In this document: positions 4,524 through 63,696 of the stretch, piece by piece
Layout: each line of letters starts with the position of its first letter
Numbering within the stretch: position 1 is the first letter of the stretch
Source of the DNA: Eledone cirrhosa
Taxonomy: Eukaryota
Direction of reading: 5' to 3'
Length of the DNA stretch: 64,000 nt
Assembly (NCBI GenBank): GCA_964016885.1
Contig: OZ024755.1
Location: 3,968,001 to 4,032,000, forward strand
Program-made: the position numbers and the translations under genes
The notes under the pieces: model-generated
Database searches by the model: none
What the model was told of the DNA's origin: nothing
What the model saw: only the letters and a program-made list of their open reading frames with translations

Positions 4524-4564
4524 CCTCGGACATGTTTCGATCTTATGAGAATTCTTCAGCGAAG
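4524..4564 (-). ncRNA. Minimal type-I hammerhead ribozyme motif, stem II partly degenerate
   Basis: Minus strand CTTCG-CTGAAGA-attctcataagatc-GAAA-CATG-TC-CGAGG; stem I CUUCG/CGAGG, palindromic stem III ACAUGU, GUC triplet. Confidence 0.6.
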
Positions 4565-4766: not shown

Positions 4767-4955
4767 AATTATTTCTACTTTTGGCACAAGGCCAGCAATT
4801 ATCCCAGTGCATTACTGGTACTTTATTTTATCGACCCCGTAAGGATGAAAGGCAAAGTTAACCTCGGCGGGATTTGAACTCAGACCATAAAGGGCCGTAA
4901 CTCTATGCTGCAAAGCATGGCGTCCGACCCTCACCGATACTGCCAATCCACCGGC
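4767..4955 (-). mobile_element. SINE family A, full length
   Basis: tRNA-like head (A box tggcagtatcgg, B box gagttcaaatcc), conserved core and tail; attag(a/c)tataat on both flanks. Confidence 0.9.
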
Positions 4956-16692: not shown

Positions 16693-17006
16693 ATGGTGGC
16701 TGCCAACTCGTTTTCGAGTACGGCCACTATTTTATATCCATGTAGGAGAACCCCTACCGATGCGCTGAACGTGTGTGACTTTTTACTCCAGCCAGCGACT
16801 TGAAAACTCTGGTACAAACACTACATTTGTGACAATTACTAACACATAGTGCTGGGCCCATGGTACCATGTGAGGACAAGTGCAGAGAGATCTCCAGATA
16901 TAAAGCAATGCCTGTGCCGTGAAGCTTTTATAGTGAGCAAAGGCACTGCACAAAGCCAGTCCCACTCTCTTAACCAAGATGATATTTACCAAAAAGAAGA
17001 ACAAGT
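16693..17006 (-). mobile_element. RTE-derived element 3' portion with C2H2 zinc-finger codons and (ATGT)n tail
   Basis: Near-identical to 62741-63028 and 63087-63400; minus frame CHKCSVCTRVFKSLAGVKSHTRSAHR*. Confidence 0.75.
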
Positions 17007-17080
17007 AGACATACATACATATATACATATAGACATACATACATATTATACATACATGTTATTGGCGCTGCCATAAGCAG

Positions 17081-19160: not shown

Positions 19161-19629
19161 TTCTTAATATTATATGGCAAAATTTATATATAGAGAGAAG
19201 TACACAAATCTTATTAGTTTCACGGTTTATATGAAAATATAATGAAATACCAATATACCCAACTATATTATATTGAAAATATAATGAAATACCAATATAC
19301 CCAACTATATTATATATTGTATGTGCATCTCTCTCTCTCTCTTATAAATACAATATATTAATAAATGGAAACTATATTTATAAAACCATATTTATTTTAT
19401 TATACATATTTCAAGGACAACCAAGGCAAATTATGGTGCGCTTTCATCAGATAAAATACAGATTTGTTTTATAAATAAATATTGACTACCCGGAAAAAAA
19501 AACAACCTTAACGGTTGGAGCTTCCTGGATAGTTGTGTATTTGCTCCACTAATCTGTTGAGTGCTTTATTTTCAGTTATAAAAATGTTTAAGCTTGTTGA
19601 ATCCCAACAAATTAAATATAACCTTTGCA

Positions 19630-19953
19630 TATCATCAGGTCGAGCTTGCTCGGCTTTCTACGACACGTTTCCTCCACCCATCTCTGTCTCTCATAGCGTT
19701 TGCCAGTTCTTCCGCAATGCATCCAGTATCGTCCCCAAGTTGCTTGACTTATGTCTTCTTGGGACGACCAGCGTTTCTTGCTCCATGAGATGGACTCCAT
19801 AACAACACATCGCCTGCTATTTCTTCTTTGCTGCGCCAACAGTGGCCAGGAAATCTGAATCTCTGTCCACGTATTGACCTGCTGATAGGTGGTATATTGC
19901 CATAGAGATCCTTATTTGTTGGGCGTTCCCTCCAAGACACTTTTAAAGCAACA
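19630..19953 (-). mobile_element. RTE-clade LINE 3' fragment (ORF C-terminus, pseudogenised)
   Basis: SWRERPTNKDLYGNIPPISRSIRGQRFRFPGHCWRS..LLWSPSHGARNAGRPKKT*VKQL..MRDRDGWRKRV resembles RTE C-terminal GH..R / GRP / DR..W motifs; in-frame stop. Confidence 0.85.
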
Positions 19954-20119
19954 CATATATATATATATATATTTCCCCAACTGTAGTTTCTCTGAATTAC
20001 CTCGTTTCTTCCATTAGAATTATATTGTTATTGAAAGTCATATCTAAATATCAATCAATTACTGAATTATACATTGAATTTCATACATTGAATTATTGTT
20101 CTTATTAATAATTGATATA

Positions 20120-21349: not shown

Positions 21350-21693
21350 TACGACAATCGGTGAAACGTTCAAAGGCTGACCAAGATACTCTCATGGAAT
21401 GACCAAATGAGGTTTATTTTTCAACATAGTCATTCGAAAGAAACAATGCAGTTATTAATAAGAAGAGTTAAAATTAATGCATGCAAGATTTCATAGCACT
21501 AGCATCATTCCTTCATAGGATGACCAAGATACTCTCATGGAATGACCAAATGAGGTTTATTTTTCAACATAGTCATTCGAAAGAAACAATGCAGTTATTA
21601 ATAAAAAGAGTTGAAATTAATGCATGCAAGATTTCATAGCTCTAGCATCACTTCTTCATAGTCATCCTATGAACTTCTCAGTCAACTCTCGTA
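21350..21693. mobile_element. Mariner-like MITE with internal about 140-bp tandem duplication
   Basis: Ends tacga...aaacgttcaaaggctgac and gtcatcctatgaacttctcagtcaactctcgta; homologous to 28157 and 58239 copies. Confidence 0.75.
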
Positions 21694-23511: not shown

Positions 23512-25185
23512 GGGAGAAGGAGAAGTGTTTTGGTGTAGAGAAGTGACTGGGAGAAGGAGAAGTGTTTTGGTGTAGAGAAGTGACTGGGAGAAGGAGAAGT
23601 GTTTTGGTGTAGAGAAGTGACTGGGAGAAGGAGAAGTGTTTTGGTGTAGAGAAGTGACTGGGAGAAGGAGAAGTGTTTTGGTGTAGAGAAGTGACTGGGA
23701 GAAGGAGAAGTGTTTTGGTGTAGAGAAGTGACTGGGAGAAGGAGAAGTGTTTTGGTGTAGAGAAGTGACTGGGAGAAGGAGAAGTGTTTTGGTGTAGAGA
23801 AGTGACTGGAGAAGTGGTTTTGGGTGTAGAAGAGAGTGACTGAACGGAGAAGGAGAAGTGTTTTGGTGTAGAGAAGTGACTGGAGAAGGAGAAGTGTTTT
23901 GGTGTAGAGAAGTGACTGGGAGAAGGAGAAGTGTTTTGGTGTAGAGAAGTGACTGGGAGAAGGAGAAGTGTTTTGGTGTAGAGAAGTGACTGGGAGAAGG
24001 AGAAGTGTTTTGGTGTAGAGAAGTGACTGGGAGAAGGAGAAGTGTTTTGGTGTAGAGAAGTGACTGGGAGAAGGAGAAGTGTTTTGGTGTAGAGAAGTGA
24101 CTGGGAGAAGGAGAAGTGTTTTGGTGTAGAGAAGTGACTGGGAGAAGGAGAAGTGTTTTGGTGTAGAGAAGTGACTGGGAGAAGGAGAAGTGTTTTGGTG
24201 TAGAGAAGTGACTGGGAGAAGGAGAAGTGTTTTGGTGTAGAGAAGTGACTGGGAGAAGGAGAAGTGTTTTGGTGTAGAGAAGTGACTGGGAGAAGGAGAA
24301 GTGTTTTGGTGTAGAGAAGTGACTGGGAGAAGGAGAAGTGTTTTGGTGTAGAGAAGTGACTGGGAGAAGGAGAAGTGTTTTGGTGTAGAGAAGTGACTGG
24401 GAGAAGGAGAAGTGTTTTGGTGTAGAGAAGTGACTGGGAGAAGGAGAAGTGTTTTGGTGTAGAGAAGTGACTGGGAGAAGGAGAAGTGTTTTGGTGTAGA
24501 GAAGTGACTGGGAGAAGGAGAAGTGTTTTGGTGTAGAGAAGTGACTGGGAGAAGGAGAAGTGTTTTGGTGTAGAGAAGTGACTGGGAGAAGGAGAAGTGT
24601 TTTGGTGTAGAGAAGTGACTGGGAGAAGGAGAAGTGTTTTGGTGTAGAGAAGTGACTGGGAGAAGGAGAAGTGTTTTGGTGTAGAGAAGTGACTGGGAGA
24701 AGGAGAAGTGTTTTGGTGTAGAGAAGTGACTGGGAGAAGGAGAAGTGTTTTGGTGTAGAGAAGTGACTGGGAGAAGGAGAAGTGTTTTGGTGTAGAGAAG
24801 TGACTGGGAGAAGGAGAAGTGTTTTGGTGTAGAGAAGTGACTGGGAGAAGGAGAAGTGTTTTGGTGTAGAGAAGTGACTGGGAGAAGGAGAAGTGTTTTG
24901 GTGTAGAGAAGTGACTGGGAGAAGGAGAAGTGTTTTGGTGTAGAGAAGTGACTGGGAGAAGGAGAAGTGTTTTGGTGTAGAGAAGTGACTGGGAGAAGGA
25001 GAAGTGTTTTGGTGTAGAGAAGTGACTGGGAGAAGGAGAAGTGTTTTGGTGTAGAGAAGTGACTGGGAGAAGGAGAAGTGTTTTGGTGTAGAGAAGTGAC
25101 TGGGAGAAGGAGAAGTGTTTTGGTGTAGAGAAGTGACTGGGAGAAGGAGAAGTGTTTTGGTGTAGAGAAGTGACTGGGAGAAGGA
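23512..25185. repeat. 37-bp minisatellite, about 45 near-identical copies
   Basis: Unit gggagaaggagaagtgttttggtgtagagaagtgact; only variant units at about 23808-23885. Confidence 0.97.
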
Positions 25186-25752: not shown

Positions 25753-25924
25753 ATGTTTGTGAAAGTTTGTGTGTGCGTGGTTATGCTTGTGAATGTGTGT
25801 GTGTGTGTGTTTGTGAATGATTGTGTTTATATCTCTCTTTGTGTGTATGTCTATGTGTGTATGTGTGTTTGTGTGTGTGTATCTCTGTGCGTGTTTCTGT
25901 GTTTGTGAATGTCTGTGTGTGTTT

Positions 25925-26270
25925 GGTGGCGGCGGCGGCGGCGGCGGTAGAGGTGGCGCTGGTAGTGGTGGTGATGGTGGTGGCGGCGGAAGAGGTGGCG
26001 GTGGTAGTGGTGGTGATGGTGATGGTGGCGGTGGTAGCGCTGGTGGTGGTGGTGGCGCTGGTAGTGGTGGTGGTGGTGGTGGCGGCGGAAGAGGTGGCGC
26101 TGGTAGTGATGGTGATGGTGATGGTGGCGGTGGTAGCGCTGGTGGTGGTGGTGGCGCTGGTAGTGGTGGTGGTGGTGGTGGCGGCGGAAGAGGTGGCGCT
26201 GGTAGTGATGGTGATGGTGATGGTGGCGGTGGTAGCGCTGGTGGTGGTGGTGGCGCTGGTAGTGGTGGTG
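25925..26270. repeat. GGT/GGC triplet tract with 90-bp higher-order repeat
   Basis: ggcggcggaagaggtggcg recurs at 90-bp intervals (about 25982, 26081, 26180 is 99 bp by eye; period 90-99 bp). Confidence 0.8.
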
Positions 26271-26386: not shown

Positions 26387-26693
26387 GGATGCTTATTCAA
26401 GTTTATAATTAGATTTTTTTCAGCACACCGGATTTAACTTATAAATGGAATAAAATGATTCCGAAAAAATATGAAATATGAAATATTTGTACAACTAGAA
26501 AGTAAAGCTTCCCTCGTGATATTTTAGATTCATCTTCTACAATATTTTACGGTCTATCTATTTATTTGTTTTCTTTCTATGGTGAGGGTTGGTTATGTTT
26601 TCTGGGGGCAGCCATTTTGTTTCTGGAAACGTCCATTTTCATTCGGGTTTTGAAATGTTTACATTGGAAATCTACAGATAGTTGGTGTAGAAG

Positions 26694-27310
26694 TAATTGT
26701 TTCTACTTTTGGCACAAGGCCTGCAATTATACCAGTGTATTACTGGTACTTTATTTTATCGACCCCGTAAGGATGAAAGGCAAAGTTAACCTCGGCGGGA
26801 TTTGAACTCAGAATGGCAAGGGCCGTAACACTATGCGTCAAAGCATGGCATCCGACCCTCTACCGATACTGCCAATCCACCGCCTTTGTTGGTGTAGAAA
26901 TAATTGTTTCTACTTTAGGCACAAGGCCAGCAAATACCCAGTGCATTACTGGTACTTTATTTTATCGACCCCGTAAGGATGAAGCACAAAGTTAACCTCG
27001 GCGGGATTTGAACTCAGACCGTAAAGGGCCGTAACTCCATGCTGCACAGCATTGCGTCCGACCCTCTACCGATATTGCCAATCTTACGTAATGAAAGCTA
27101 TAACCATTTTCACAAGAGAAGACATCTCTCCCCGTCGGACGGGGAGAGTTAACAGGTCTCCCAGTGCGTAACTGGTACTCTATTTTATCTGATGAAAGAC
27201 AAAACTAACCTCAGTGGGATTGGAATCCGGACGTAAAGGGTTGTAACTCTATGCCGCGAAACATGTTGTCCGACCCTCTACCGATTACTGCCCTTTCATC
27301 CACGGCCCTT
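26694..27310 (-). mobile_element. Two young tandem SINE family A copies plus one old long-form copy
   Basis: gttggtgtagaa(g/a)taat precedes both young copies. Confidence 0.88.
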
Positions 27311-44670: not shown

Positions 44671-46045
44671 TCCTCATTTTTCCCATTTATCTGAGTCTCT
44701 GATTATTTCATGTTTTCTCTTTGTCACTCTCATTTTCTTCCTCTTTATCAAACTCTCCCTTTCTGTTAATTTCTCCCTTCCCTTTTCCTTCCTCTCCCCC
44801 TCCCTCTCTCTCTCCCATTTCTCAGTCCTCTTTTCTTACCCTTCTTACAATTCTCGTTCTTTCTCACAAACAAAAGATTAACGATTACTTCCGAAGCCTA
44901 TTAATTTCTTACCTTATAAATTTCTCTCATATATTAAATGTGCTTAAGTGATTTCTTCGTAATTTCTTTTAAACATATTTTTTTTACAAGACAAACATTT
45001 AAATGAAATCCAATTTAAGTTATTGACATCTTAACTTAAATTATTTTTATTTTACTTCTTACAAAGCTCGTTAGATAACAACTTTCTTTTAATCTTGTAT
45101 AATTATATAAACATTCTCTTAATTACATCAAAAATTCTTTAATGTCCTTTGAAACCTTTACAGGTTGAAACAATCACTTAAATATGGCGGTTATTTTTCA
45201 CAGTTTATTTTTCAGTTTCTCCTACTAATAATTTGGTTTGATATTATTACATTATTCTACCAACCAATTCCCACAGCTGCGTTCTTTTCCCTCTTCTATT
45301 TCTACAATACTTGTATGTCAATGTATACACGATATAATTAACGTTTAATTTCTTGACAACGAAACAGATAAAAAAATGTTCAACATTTATTAAAGTAAAT
45401 ACTAGAAATTTTCTGTTATAACAATACGTCTTTCTATTTTAATTGTAGCATTCTCTCCTCCTTGTCCGCAAGGTAATACACACCTATTAATAAATTTAAA
45501 CCACATTTCTTGAAAAAACAGAATCCCGAACGCCATCCTCCCGAATGTTTAACTATTCAAAGTTTAGAATTCGGAAAAGTTGAAATGCTAGAAACCACAA
45601 TTCTGAAAATATTTATATTAAGGGAAAAATAATATCAAATATTAAAACAAAAAACACATTCTTAAAAGACAAAGAAATATAGAAATTACGTCATACAACG
45701 GCTGGACCCTGATAATGTCCGTCACCCCTCTACCAGTAATTGAAGCAGGTCGGATATTGTTTGGCTGAGAGGGCTGGTGTATAGTTTTTGAAGAACGTGT
45801 TTGAGTGTATTTCATGGCTGGTGCGGTACAGGTTTTGGCGTAGGGATGATTGTGGGATTGTAGTTTGCGTTTGCTTGGTTTGGTGTTGCCATGGTTTGGC
45901 ATGGGTTTCGTTTAGATTTGTTTACATTCTCGTTGAGGCAAATAAGGTTTCAGTTTTTATATATTTACAGTTTCAAATAGGAATTTATTTGAGAAACTTA
46001 TTAAAGCACACATACGACAAAAATATTTAAAGTGGACTGCAAGGA

Positions 46046-46346
46046 ACGTAGGAGTTAGGCCTATAACGTAGGAGATAGGCCTATAACGTAGGAGATAGGC
46101 CTATAACGTAGGAGTTAGGCCTATAACGTAGGAGATAGGCCTATAACGTAGGAGCTAGGCCTATAACGTAGGAGCTAGGCCTATAACGTACGTGCTATGC
46201 CTATAACGTAGGAGATAGGCCTATAACGTAGGAGATAGGCCTATAACGTAGGGGCTAAGCCTATAACGTAGGGGCTAAGCCTATAACGTAGGGGCTAAGC
46301 CTATAACGTATGAGCGAGGTCTATAACGTATGGATAGGCCTATAAC
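46046..46346. repeat. 20-bp minisatellite, about 15 copies
   Basis: Unit aacgtaggagataggcctat containing the palindrome ataggcctat. Confidence 0.95.
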
Positions 46347-49454: not shown

Positions 49455-50030
49455 TCGGTGGATTGGTGCCAGTAATCAGTAGAGGGTCGGACATCATGCT
49501 TCGCAGAATATTGTTACGGCACTTTGTGTTCTGAGTTCAAATCCCGCCGAGGTTAACTTTGCCTTTCATCCTTACACGGTCGATAAAATAAAGTACCAGT
49601 AATACACTGGGGTCGATTTAATCGACTTTCCCCTTTCCACAAGAATTGCTGGCCTTTTGCCCAAATTAGAAACCATTATTACAAGTCCAGCATAGTTACG
49701 TCCCTTTACGATCTGAGTTCAAATCCCGCCGAGGTTGACTTTGCCTTTCATCCTTACGGGGTCGATAAAATAAAGTACCAGTAATGCACTGGGTAATTGC
49801 TGGCCTTGTGCCTAAAGTAGAAACAATTATTACAAGTACGGTGGATTGGCAGTATCGGTAGAGGCTAGGACGCCATGCTTTGACGAATAGAGTTAGGGCC
49901 CTTGCCATTCCGAGTTCAAATCCCGCCGAGGTTAACTTTTCCTTTCATCCTTACGGGGTCGATAAAATAAGTACCAGTAATACACTGAGATTATACACTG
50001 GCCTTGACCCCAAAGTAGAAACAATAATTA
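49455..50030 (+). mobile_element. Three stacked SINE family A copies (long form, truncated short, full short)
   Basis: attattacaagt repeated at about 49676 and 49827. Confidence 0.9.
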
Positions 50031-50116
50031 CTATTATTGACAGCTGCCTTGCTTTAATATGTTTTCATATCAACATTCGAGGTTCCGGATTTGACTAAGT
50101 TTATTCTGCATGGGAT

Positions 50117-50306
50117 AATAATTGTTTCTACTTTTGGCACAAGGCCAGCAATTATCCCAGTGTATTACTGGTACTTTATTTCATCGACCCCATAAGGATG
50201 AAAGGGGAAAGTTAACCCCGGCAGGATTTGAACTCAGACTATAAAGGGCCGTAACTCTTTGCTGCAAAACATGGCGTCCGACCCTCTACCGATACTGCCA
50301 ATCCAC
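50117..50306 (-). mobile_element. SINE family A, tail-to-tail with the preceding copy
   Basis: Head, core and tail match. Confidence 0.9.
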
Positions 50307-50747
50307 AATATTTGGAATTTATTAATTTTAATCTTGGAACATTCTTGAAAGTTACCTTTACATGGTTAAGTCGAAAAAATAAACCTAATATTTTATAGCA
50401 ACTGACTCTGAACCAGTTCTTCACAAGAATAACACTGAACATCGTTTCGTCTACGAATCAAGCCTGTTCTTTGTTTATGTTTACCGTAATCCTTTAATTA
50501 ATTACCTAATCTTTACAATTTACACCTGATGACGTCGCCAGTCTTATGTCATCATCTGATGAAGTAACCAGGCCATAGAGATACGTATTGCGATTATGCA
50601 ACATAGAAAAAATATTTGGAATCTGGTCTTCTGGTGTCTTTATACAGATACACAAAAAATACACACGCACACATGTACACATATATACATTCGTACACAC
50701 ATATTCACATGTACACATCCAAACTTATATTGTTATATACTTATATT

Positions 50748-51055: not shown

Positions 51056-51398
51056 GCAGACAGATAAACAGATAGATATTTTTTTAGATAAAGATACGTT
51101 TTTATTTTTTTGTATATAGATAAAAGGAAATAAGTTTTTTTAGAAAGTTTTGTGATTGTTTTTCATCGATATCTTCCCTCTCCTACCACTTGCTATTATT
51201 TTTACAATAGACGTCAGCAGATTTCTCAGGTAATGTCCATTCTCTGATGATTTACAATTTTACCATTCCAAGTACCTAACCACGAAGACTGATTGAGTAT
51301 TCTTTGGAACATTCCAATATATACTTTCTGCTTTTACTTATCATCACCATTACCATTACCACTATCACCACCACCACCGCAATCGCAATCGAATTTTG

Positions 51399-51459
<61 letters not shown>

Positions 51460-51460
<1 letters not shown>

Positions 51461-51730
51461 AAAAGGAATTCCAACTTTGACTGATTTACTCGTTTTATTT
51501 CAATCCTTTAAAATGTATAATGGTATTAAAATGAAATATTATGGTAGAATATTAAATGTTAAGTGTTAATTGAACAAGTACTTTCATGCTTTCGCAATCT
51601 TCAGGTTCATATTCTGTGGTGACAGTCAAGTTTGCAATTTTCAGCTGTTGAAAATTGCAAACTTGACTATCAGAATATGAAATAATCAATCAAAGTATGA
51701 GTAAATCAATCAAAGTTGGAATTCCTTTTA
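51460..51730. mobile_element. Nested fold-back cassette in (TA)n containing a hammerhead motif
   Basis: Outer arms 51460-51491 / 51699-51730; inner hairpin 51606-51681. Confidence 0.75.
51571..51609 (-). ncRNA. Minimal type-I hammerhead ribozyme, intact core
   Basis: TGAAC-CTGAAGA-tTGC(GAAA)GCAt-GAAA-GTAC-TT-GTTCA; perfect 5-bp stem I, GAAA-capped stem II, palindromic stem III AGUACU. Confidence 0.72.
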
Positions 51731-51768
51731 TTAATATAATCTTCTATACACAATCATACACACCCGTA

Positions 51769-51817
<49 letters not shown>

Positions 51818-51884
51818 ATGTAAAAGGTAAAGGTAAACGGAAATAACAACACAATAGGTACAGTATATGGGAGGGATATATTAG

Positions 51885-51918
51885 GTTAACGCTTTCGGAC
51901 GCTAGTCCTTCATCACAA
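51885..51918 (-). ncRNA. Degenerate hammerhead motif
   Basis: gTGATGA-A-GGAC(tagc)GTCC-GAAA-gcg-TT; similar to cggatgaaagactaatatccgaaacgta at 3460-3487. Confidence 0.45.
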
Positions 51919-52232
51919 GAAAGATGAGAAATAAGATAGATTGAGGGGACGGGCGGGTTGGAATTGGGGAGAAAATATATATATATGTATATTGTATAGT
52001 ATATTTTATATCCATTTGTATATGTGTGGAAGAGAGAAAGAAAGATAAATGCTAGAAGGCTGAGATCTTTTTTTATGTTTTACTGTAATAAGGGGTCGCT
52101 CTCCATCCCCGTTTGTATTACTGGTATTGCTAAAATTAAGAATCAACAAACAAACAAACAAAAGCAAAAACTGACGAAATGAGTAAAAACAAAACAAGAT
52201 CTATAGTTGGAAATATCTTTTACGTAACCATG

Positions 52233-53084: not shown

Positions 53085-53295
53085 GGGACGGTGGATTAGC
53101 AGTAATCGATAGAGCGTCAGACACTTTGTGGCATATATATTTACGGTCCTTTATATTCTGATTTCAAATCCTGCCGAGGTTAGCTTTGCCATTCATAGAT
53201 AAAATAAGGTACCAGTAATACACTGAGGTCGATTTAGTCGACTTTTCCCTTCCATCTCTCAAAATTATTGACATTGTGCCTAAATCAGAAATCAG
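53085..53295 (+). mobile_element. SINE family A, old long form
   Basis: Diverged head, core, hairpin segment and tail. Confidence 0.8.
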
Positions 53296-53626
53296 TGTTA
53301 TTTAACACCAGATCACCTCTGAAAGAATAAACCTATGACCAAAAGCTTCCCAGCCGTGACCATTCCATCGTTCTTCAGATATTGGTTAACTTAGTCTGCA
53401 AAATTCAAGGTCCTTGTTTTCTTCATATCTTTCTCCTTTCTCTCTTTTTCTTATGTCTCATTAATTGCTTGCTTTCATAAACAATCTCTGAAATATAAAT
53501 CATGATTTGTTTCAAAAGGGGAGAAAAAAATCTGTCCTTTTCCGATGCTAATAGATAAATCACGGGAGAAAATATAATCACTGCGATATTAAGAATCTAA
53601 GAGAATCTAAAGTAATATTTATAACG

Positions 53627-53826: not shown

Positions 53827-53899
<73 letters not shown>

Positions 53900-54016
53900 A
53901 ATTTCATAAGTGTGTGCTTGATATATATATATATATATATATCAGAAATTTCATAAGTGTGTGCTTGATATATATATATATATATATATATATCAGAAAT
54001 TTCATAAGTGTGTGTT

Positions 54017-54050
<34 letters not shown>

Positions 54051-54389
54051 TTTCTTCTTTTCTGATTCCATAGAGAAACAACGATAATAATGTTTTAGTT
54101 TGGGGAAAGTTTTTTATCATTTAGTTTTTTTTAGGTTTTCCTTACGTGAAAACAAGTTGTTTATGTTTTAAGCCTCTAATAATGATGGTAGATATTTCAG
54201 TAATCTTCAAATAACGGGACGCTGCTGACTATAATAGCCTCGTTTATCCGGAAATAATATAATAAATTGGAAGATATATTCTGCAATATTCTCTAGTGCT
54301 ATTTCGAAATAAATCTTTCTATCTTAATATCAGAGTTTTTTATTATTAGGCCAATAAAGAAATTATTATTATTATTATTACTATTATCC

Positions 54390-54699
54390 TGTGGATTGGC
54401 AGTATCGGTAGAGGGTCGGACACCATGCTTTGCAGCATAGAGTTATGCTCCCTTACGGTCTGATTTCAAATCCCGCCGAGGTTAACTTTGCCTTTCATCC
54501 TTCTGGGGTCAATAAAATAAAGTACCAGTAATGCACTGGGATAATTGCTGGCCTTGTGCCAAACGTAGAAACAATTATTATTATTATTATTATGGCGGTG
54601 GATTGGCAGTATCGGTAGAGCGTCGGACGCCATGCTTTGTGGCATAGAGTTATAACCCATTACGTTCTGAGTTCAAATCCCGCCAGGGTTAGCTTTGCC
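54390..54699 (+). mobile_element. SINE family A full copy plus 3'-truncated copy in (ATT)n
   Basis: Both preceded by attatt runs. Confidence 0.88.
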
Positions 54700-54776
54700 A
54701 TATACAAATAGATGTGTGTTTTGGTAGTTTGGAGAGAAAAATATGATTATTGAGAGGCGGGGCAGTTCCACCGCCC

Positions 54777-55054: not shown

Positions 55055-55096
<42 letters not shown>

Positions 55097-55106
55097 AGAG
55101 AGAGAG

Positions 55107-55267
55107 AAGTAGTATCACAACAGTTATTTCACCTTGCGAATCTTCAGCTCGGTGAAACAATTGTTCTCGGTATGGTGAACTAACTGTTGTGTAACCACTT
55201 CTACCAAACTCGTCCCACGGACTGAGTGCTCTACCACTACGGATATAACCCTCCTCCAGTGTTCTAC

Positions 55268-55270
<3 letters not shown>
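55107..55270. mobile_element. TA-embedded cassette with an inversion through a hammerhead motif
   Basis: About 27-bp inverted arms 55107-55133 / 55174-55200; homologous to 57613-57678. Confidence 0.65.
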
Positions 55271-62740: not shown

Positions 62741-63028
62741 ATGGTGGCTGCCAACTCGTTTTCGAGTACGGCCACTACTTTATATCCATGTAGGAGAACC
62801 CCTACCGATGCGCTGAACGAGTGTGACTTTTTAGTCCAGCCAGCGACTTGAAAACTCTGGTACAAACACTACACTTGTGACAATTATTGACACATAGTGC
62901 TGGGCCCATGGTACCATGTGACGACAAGTGCAGAGAGATCTCCAGATATAAAGCAATGCCTGTGCCGTGAAGCTTTTATAGTGAGCAAAGGCACTGCACA
63001 AAGCCAGTCCCACTCTCTTAACCAAGAT
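62741..63028 (-). mobile_element. RTE-derived element, 5'-truncated copy
   Basis: 62802-62882 minus encodes CHKCSVCTRVFKSLAGLKSHTRSAHR*; (TACA)n on both sides. Confidence 0.78.
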
Positions 63029-63086
63029 ACATACATATATACACACATACATACATATATACATACATACATACATATATACACAC

Positions 63087-63696
63087 ATGGTGGCTGCCAA
63101 CTCGTTTTCGAGTACGGCCACGACCTTATATCCATGCAGGAGAACCCCTACCAATGCGCTGAACGAGTGTGACCCTCTAGTCCAGCCAGCGTATTGAAAA
63201 TTCTGGCACAAACACTACACCTGTGACAACCATTGACACATAGTGCCGGGCCCATGGTACCATGCGACGACAAGTGCAGAGAGATCTCCAGATATAAAGC
63301 AATGCCTGTGCCGTGAAGCTTTTATAGTGAGTAAAGGCACTGCACAAAGCCAGTCCCACTCTCTTAACCAAGATGATATTTACCAAAAAGAAGAACAAGT
63401 CATCATCATTGGATACCATCAGGGTTGCAGGTGTTATATCAGAGTTTTCCTTCTCCTAGAATTCTGCCTTGACAAAGGCTAAGGGGTCATCTCTCCCGGT
63501 GATTTTGGATGGCCATTGACTCTTAAGAGCTCCTTTGCCCTTTGACAGGTTTTGTTTTTAGTCCTGCAGGATGTCCAAAGTCACCCTCCTCACCAAGAAA
63601 CCTTGGTGGGGTTGCCAGTTTAGTCGCCAACGACCCGACCGTGAGACAGGTTGTACTGGGATACATGTTACCAGTAGCACCAACTGGTGACCTGAC
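63087..63696 (-). mobile_element. About 610-bp bipartite non-autonomous RTE-like element (5' UTR-like part plus 3' end)
   Basis: 3' part as in the other copies (CHRCSVCARIFNTLAGLEGHTRSAHW*); 5' part has aggcagaattctaggagaaggaaaactctga, recalled as RTE 5' UTR-like; (TACA)n flanks. Confidence 0.65.

Follow-up and report, generated by a model that had tools for sequence, protein, structure and literature searches.

A hammerhead ribozyme motif in a head-to-head copy of a repeat family, likely the end of a Penelope-like element, in Eledone cirrhosa

A complete type I minimal hammerhead motif is located on the minus strand of the 64,000-nucleotide stretch of Eledone cirrhosa DNA that we analysed (contig OZ024755.1; hereafter the window), within a compact inverted insertion of about 51452-51772 (Table 1). 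We put at roughly 85% the probability that this insertion is an old copy of a repeat family with a hammerhead near its 3' end, likely the end of a Penelope-like element (PLE) that was inserted head-to-head into a (TA)n microsatellite. With high confidence the stretch behaves like a PLE end, and it is likely the ordinary truncated end of such a retrotransposon, the class being assigned by architecture and not by protein, since no reverse transcriptase (RT) or GIY-YIG ORF was recovered. Pfam analysis of 145 of the 287 filtered ORFs of the window gave neither domain, and two low-complexity matches stayed below the cut-off. The architecture comprises an inverted, 5'-truncated copy joined head-to-head with a palindrome at the junction, and a 34-nt tail on one end, which falls within the 30-40 bp of the optional PLE tail.

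Table 1. Features of the insertion and of the hammerhead motif (window coordinates)
Feature	Position	Strand	Basis or remark
Left (TA)n microsatellite, likely insertion target	51400..51456	.	sequence; element boundary blurred over 51452-51458
Left arm: 5'-truncated 3' end of high-copy repeat family, short 3' end without tail	51457..51645	-	mapped runs
Type I minimal hammerhead motif	51571..51609 (reads 51609-51571)	-	complete core; sequence inspection and structural descriptor
Stem I, 5' strand UGAAC	51609-51605	-	
Core CUGAAGA	51604-51598	-	
Stem II: U(51597)·U(51586) and 3 pairs closing GAAA loop	loop 51593-51590	-	
GAA	51585-51583	-	
Stem III palindrome AGUACU	51582-51577	-	
H17 = U, triplet CUU	51576	-	
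Predicted cut site	between 51576 and 51575	-	
Stem I, 3' strand GUUCA	51575-51571	-	
Palindrome at the apex of the head-to-head pair (centred on 51646; exact arms of 20 bp)	51624..51668	.	
Right arm: inverted copy of left arm with two deletions	51647..51738	+	alignment
Patchwork deletion junction	51677..51716	+	microhomology and tandem units; zero depth
A+C-rich (65%) tail of 34 nt, on right end only, family sequence	51739..51772	+	
Right (TA)n microsatellite	51773..51799	.	sequence

All core nucleotides that the original prediction had claimed for the hammerhead were found on the minus strand: C3-A9, G12-A14, the A15.1-U16.1 pair and an H17 other than G are all present. The 5-bp stem I, the stem II with its GAAA loop, the AGUACU stem III and the CUU triplet that it had named could each be confirmed in the sequence as well; stem II has 3 bp, and the palindromic stem III includes loop 3. 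Position 10.1·11.1 is a U·U mismatch in place of the usual, though not strictly required, G10.1-C11.1 pair. This mismatch is a known natural variant, which supports cleavage better than other mispairs do (PMC3088659, in the part available), and CUU comes last in the ranking of NUH triplets, in the weakest class (PMC8879150, likewise in part). The motif is the sole match of the structural descriptor across the 64-kb window. Among block-wise dinucleotide shuffles of the window, 2 of 200 contained a match to the loose descriptor and none of 200 a match to the strict one, the latter figure being optimistic because the strict filter was set from this motif itself. The single match in the window and the shuffles place the motif beyond chance. 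Rfam gave no match at gathering score anywhere in the window, and no hammerhead family was present among the 41 matches at E ≤ 10 in 51300-51900, which were only hairpin or microsatellite miRNA noise.

Public sequencing runs showed that 51466-51648 is a repeat family present in several organisms. Part of the stretch is contained in 11 of 16 listed runs (7 studies, 8 organisms), and none contains half of it. No RNA run was among those listed as containing it, a result without bearing on expression. Four runs were mapped at ≥80% on 51455-51765, namely X1 and X14 from organism A (1835 contigs and 2337 raw reads, respectively), X4 from organism B (1367 contigs) and X7 from organism D (4 contigs). 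Collinear pieces of the family are found, for example, in record 17 of X7 (51455-51608) and record 9 of X4 (51455-51623). The family runs on past 51648 in sequence other than that of this cassette, and extends upstream of 51643-51648 by at least 64-175 nt (median loose ends, X4). Contig depth is highest over the ribozyme, depth being no measure of copy number. The ends of X14 reads at 51568/51571 seem near the predicted cut site but are artefacts of the RAD library, all six pile-ups being at AATT sites.

The hammerhead looks conserved against its flanks across these copies. Sites with at least 5% of other letters were counted in 51571-51609 and in the rest of 51457-51648, among the variant-table rows listed. 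In organism A, 0 of 39 motif sites and 15 of 153 flank sites were variable in X1 (Fisher p 0.029), and 0 of 39 and 17 of 153 in X14 (p 0.017), among the rows listed; in organism B (X4) the counts were 2 of 39 and 22 of 153 (p 0.09, not significant), again among the rows listed. The expectation that the core would be conserved relative to the flanks is thus supported in organism A (p 0.02-0.03) and not significantly in organism B. The support is moderate, because X1 and X14 come from one organism, 8 rows of the variant table fall outside the counts, and the flank counts include the private changes of this copy. The main changes of the motif in organism B are tolerated ones: H17 is A in place of U in 20% of depth, and loop II has an additional A in 15%. 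The outermost stem I base, 51571, is changed in 19% of X4 and its partner in only 0.1%, so that the pair is broken and uncompensated; no linked compensatory stem change was visible in the mapped runs, in which variants at 51571 and 51609 are unphased. The motif is real and probably selected.

The inverted arms that had been predicted for 51460-51730 are present, but the insertion is wider than that range. Nor is the cassette doubly folded, as had been proposed: both inversions are parts of a single inverted copy. Four pairs of exact inverted arms (51460-51480/51710-51730, 21 bp; 51482-51491/51699-51708, 10 bp; 51606-51616/51671-51681, 11 bp; 51624-51643/51649-51668, 20 bp) all have the same polarity, and from 51647 onwards the plus strand repeats the left arm in sense orientation. 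Compared with the left arm, the right arm has lost 5 nt and, in addition, about 107 nt including the hammerhead. It can be followed from 51645 to 51606, a part that includes the 5-nt loss, by a jump at TGAA to 51502-51495, through two 20-nt units, then from 51493 to 51452 and into the tail. The family letter at 51644 is A in at least 98% of depth in X1, X4 and X14; if this A was original, the apex would be a 22-bp palindrome with a 1-nt spacer at 51646, the A pairing with 51648; the family sequence itself has an interrupted micro-palindrome at this point. Joints with the opposite strand in the mapped runs were left out of the count of inversions, being mostly ordinary copies that map on both arms.

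Both arms carry a letter that is nearly absent from the family (51480/51710; the other letter is found in 400 of 411 X14 reads), and they differ from each other at 5 of 85 collinear positions, which suggests one source followed by age. These findings bear on whether the inversion is a fold-back artefact of assembly or library preparation. Such an artefact would agree with the lack of any contig or read over 51675-51696 in four runs and with the fact that the best run contains only 48% of the sampled words; but the 5 differences in 85 positions argue against it, as do deletions specific to one arm and a tail on the right arm only, and we regard it as scarcely credible.

The tail belongs to the family, since depth remains high through 51765 in X1, X4 and X14. 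A long 3' end is seen in 295 X14 reads that continue behind 51763 into (TA)n, and a short one in 14 X1 contigs that pass into (TA)n immediately after 51738, the point corresponding to the end of the left arm. Hence a short and a long 3' end, separated by 34 nt, exist in the family, and both occur in this insertion, one on each arm. The predicted cut site is 124 nt from the short end and 158 nt from the long end, so the hammerhead is near the 3' end. That the cassette is instead a DNA transposon of the MITE or foldback type, placed at a TA site and bounded by terminal inverted repeats of 40 bp, with a hammerhead match due to chance, is extremely unlikely. The TA flanks, the inverted ends and the absence of a hammerhead hit in Rfam would fit such an element, but the cassette is not the unit of the family, as depth is zero in its middle and the family continues past 51648; moreover, the 34-nt tail lies outside the right repeat, and the hammerhead is rare in shuffles and less variable than its flanks.

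It had also been suggested that the inner inversion begins at the 5' strand of stem I (51606), and that the position of the ribozyme is related to the place where the inversion formed. The coordinate does lie in that strand, but it is a breakpoint of the internal deletion and not the start of the inversion; the apex is separated by 37 nt from the ribozyme's 5' end and by 70 nt from the scissile bond, which does not support the proposed relation. The deletion junction has the microhomology TGAA (51609-51606 = 51502-51499), the match continues for 8 nt, and behind it are two 20-nt tandem units with 17 of 20 positions identical. For comparison, 87 of 3519 random junctions had a 4-nt microhomology. 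The parse is not unique, as the opposite strand offers the junction filler another match of the same length, 8 nt, at 51531-51538. A global alignment that derived the filler from 51553-51536 had 5 mismatches in 18 positions, and the parse by exact matches was preferred. The junction looks private to this copy and not a feature of the family, as judged from the zero depth at 51675-51696 in all four mapped runs, a hole that by itself proves nothing. At least part of the rearrangement may postdate the insertion, since the duplicated unit carries a change of the right arm's own.

Whether the ribozyme fixed the inversion site, by cleavage or by a stem I that stalled the polymerase, has to be weighed against these data. 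The copied arm ends 4 nt into the 5' strand of stem I (51606), this stem could form in the cDNA too and stall synthesis there, and the probability that a single junction lands in exactly this 5-nt strand is about 0.026, for a target chosen post hoc. With four junctions, however, the probability that at least one falls in the 39-nt motif is about 0.59. Moreover, the scissile bond is 70 nt away from the apex and 30 nt away from the breakpoint, the jump does not land (at about 51499) in the partner strand of stem I, the 4-nt microhomology accounts for the junction, and the junction is absent from all four mapped runs. In the one PLE tested, according to the accessible part of the report, ribozyme mutants left insertion unchanged (PMC11167929). 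A role of the ribozyme in fixing the inversion therefore appears quite improbable.

The prediction that stem III is suited to dimeric folding agrees with the computed energies, in which the motif is of the dimer-type minimal hammerhead and the double form is favoured. The active form was calculated at +1.1 kcal/mol for a single-molecule hammerhead and at -13.8 for a double hammerhead, as expected for a motif of this type. The minimum-energy fold of the model dimer (-16.4) has pairing slightly unlike the active form. Folding of the motif by itself is weak (z -0.57) and yields stems I and II without stem III. The cassette 51455-51735 has a folding z of -14.9, and stem I has a pairing probability of 0.10-0.15 when the left arm is folded by itself and of 0.00 when the cassette is folded whole. 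By these predictions, the ribozyme would work solely as a dimer or with the help of a protein, and in a transcript spanning the entire copy it likely could not fold. It is probably inactive in place, because the inverted arm is predicted to sequester stem I and BLAST within the 64-kb window recovered no further family copy. Slow processing of a tandem precursor RNA, with two copies paired by way of AGUACU, would be the likely role of the ribozyme in the parent element.

The arrangement as a whole may be explained by the way in which PLEs insert. The GIY-YIG endonuclease of the element, located outside the window, would have nicked (TA)n, and reverse transcription would have started at the two ends of the target with RNA from a single source copy as template, the left arm being primed at the short start and the right arm at the long start, which would yield the tail. 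Two 5'-truncated cDNAs would then have been joined at the interrupted micro-palindrome 51644-51648, or one cDNA would have folded back there; the right arm would subsequently have lost about 107 nt, including the ribozyme, by microhomology-driven template jumps during or after insertion.

The (TA)n target, the inverted truncated copy, the apex palindrome, the one-sided tail and the U·U hammerhead all have counterparts in described PLEs, as far as the accessible portions of the cited papers go. Craig et al. in 2021 (PMC8557442) described a tail of 30-40 bp, often on one end only, and, at the 5' end, a 5'-truncated copy in inverted orientation; in Penelope-13_HM the 5' end bears an inverted copy that is 5'-truncated, as here. 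In the Penelope elements of Adineta vaga, Arkhipova et al. (2013) described head-to-head inverted pLTRs with junction palindromes that were read as self-priming, as well as insertions with a 31-bp tail and an internal microhomology-mediated deletion (PMC3846280); the head-to-head order, the palindrome at the junction, the one-sided tail and the internal deletion at microhomology are all shared with the present copy. In Anolis, the PLE protein of Poseidon PAc nicks and extends both strands at AT-rich DNA, its tail is an AC-rich stretch between two RT start sites, and its hammerhead is protein-assisted and dispensable for insertion in vitro (Frangieh et al. 2024; PMC11167929); the AC-rich tail between two RT starts resembles that of our element. 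In both Adineta vaga and Poseidon the ORF start overlaps the pLTR or the ribozyme, whereas each of the three sense frames of the left arm is interrupted by stops here, and a target-site duplication is not recognizable within (TA)n, unlike in these comparators.

In other PLE clades, ORF starts or intron ends overlap the ribozyme (PMC4209133 and PMC11167929, in the parts available). On the minus strand at 51555-51647, one sense frame runs through the ribozyme without a stop for 31 codons, and just upstream of stem I there is a CAG with a branch-point-like motif before it; both may be due to chance.

The ribozyme itself shares features with other metazoan PLE hammerheads. As described in the accessible part of Cervera and de la Pena (2014), solitary minimal hammerheads derive from truncated PLEs, the monomer is inactive and the activity of the dimer is low (PMC4209133). 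Those ribozymes are of type I, with palindromic 15.2-16.2 and loop 3 as here and a helix I of 4-5 bp, and they are mostly solitary with activity predicted for the dimer, which also holds here. In the typical form, by contrast, helix II is long, a base is bulged and G10.1 pairs with C11.1, while ours has a helix II of 3 bp and U·U.

The nearest ribozymes are found in the Hydra clade, e.g. in Hydra-1_Crog, Hydra-1_Ajap and Penelope-3_HM/-5_HM (PMC8557442, in part; the hammerhead figures that follow are our own count from its File S2). Common features are CUGAnGA-U, a short stem II, U-GAA, an H17 of U or A, the hammerhead near the 3' end and the (TA)n target. A hammerhead is listed for 25 families of the Hydra clade; U·U flanks stem II in 14 of them, of which 8 open the stem with UGCC/GGCA (UGC/GCA here), and H17 is U in 10, A in 11 and C in 4. 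In contrast to our motif, which has a perfect 6-nt palindrome as stem III and the triplet CUU, all 25 listed hammerheads have a stem III of 9-10 nt and a GUH triplet; a further difference is our stem II of 3 bp. The octopus Hydra-1_Obim is a different family, with another hammerhead and another 3' end. Insertion into (TA)n is given for 26 of the 27 Hydra-clade rows of File S1, and it occurs in Naiad and Neptune too, hence it is not diagnostic of Hydra. Since the clade is defined by RWK, DKT, no CCHH, a CxCX5C linker and RT phylogeny, an assignment made from ribozyme shape and target and not from protein motifs gives about an even chance that the family belongs to Hydra or near it.

The missing protein could also mean that the family is a non-autonomous hammerhead element without any ORF, such as a non-LTR retrozyme or a SINE-like PLE derivative, mobilized in trans, an alternative discussed in a review (PMC6765202, in part). 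The absence of an RT or GIY-YIG ORF from the ORFs searched is in keeping with this. Retrozymes likewise bear type I hammerheads in short AT-rich repeats, in one of them, HHR_Amex2, helix II has U·U at its base and cleavage is better in the dimer (PMC7229834, in part), and retrozymes have been argued to be PLE-derived (bioRxiv 10.64898/2026.07.22.740005, in part). However, according to the accessible part of PMC7229834 retrozymes are tandem repeats of 150-450 nt with canonical hammerheads that make circRNA, whereas this copy is solitary and inverted. Furthermore, both 3' ends of the family lead into (TA)n and not into a next unit, among the 20 of 256 loose-end rows listed, and the upstream extension of the family given above also stands against a unit of this kind. 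We consider a non-autonomous element unlikely; it overlaps with the PLE reading, as the family could be a PLE-derived non-autonomous form.

The window around the insertion has a GC content of 23-45% per 2-kb bin and contains many microsatellites and short interspersed repeats. This is the make-up of an animal genome, with repeats that look like those of an octopus. About 110 bp away from the cassette, on the minus strand at 51880-51925 with its core at 51916, there is a decayed hammerhead of the classic minimal form with a bulged A, G10.1-C11.1 and a 4-bp stem II, in which C3 is changed to G and stem I is absent; this piece, ending in (TA)n, is likely the end of another PLE family. The U·U layout pattern is found at two loci in the window, where 0.06 matches were expected. 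The motif at 55119-55147 (minus strand, in the TA-flanked 55094-55270) has the U·U layout with a 2-bp stem II and a GCAA loop, its stems I and III not being formed, and is probably a decayed related family. A further hammerhead core with palindromic ACAUGU and a GUC triplet, at 4529-4559 on the minus strand, failed the structural descriptor. A SINE-like family of about 200 bp is present in many copies in both orientations, some of them in tandem (49475-50318, 53088-53300, 54388-54747, 4770-4950 and 26681-27083). Three tandem units of 27-29 nt with (TA)n runs between them are located at 53830-54050, a very homogeneous 37-bp minisatellite (45 copies, 98% matches) at 23512-25185, and other arrays have periods of 143 (21369-21661), 99 (25924-26270) and 20 (46045-46346). 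Repeated ORF-like fragments at 16786-17058, 62834-63455 and 19615-20027 resemble Tc1/mariner transposase (three copies) and the end of an RTE-type LINE; Pfam gave no match for them.

A further possibility, which we hold to be very unlikely, is that the hammerhead stays nearly invariant across species because it serves chiefly for the pairing of two element RNAs and not for cutting. The slowest chemistry would then have been kept (CUU/CUA triplet, U·U and a 6-nt palindrome), and the RNA dimer would give one template to each nicked (TA)n end. A dimer serving as a double template would explain head-to-head arms with short and long RT starts, as they are found here.

No prior description of the family was found in the literature searched, including two papers on octopus repeats, neither of which mentions a hammerhead or a ribozyme. 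A 20-letter search of the accessible supplement of PMC8557442 gave no match, which FASTA line breaks can hide, and exact pattern scans of metagenome contigs and viral contigs gave none. This high-copy family is probably uncatalogued; Repbase, Dfam and supplements may contain it. While PLE hammerheads and inverted, tailed insertions have already been described, new is a family with an unusual combination in its hammerhead (U·U, a 6-nt stem III and CUU), together with a compact copy in which both 3' ends and the apex palindrome lie within 320 bp. This copy is a test case for the role of PLE hammerheads and for the formation of head-to-head insertions.
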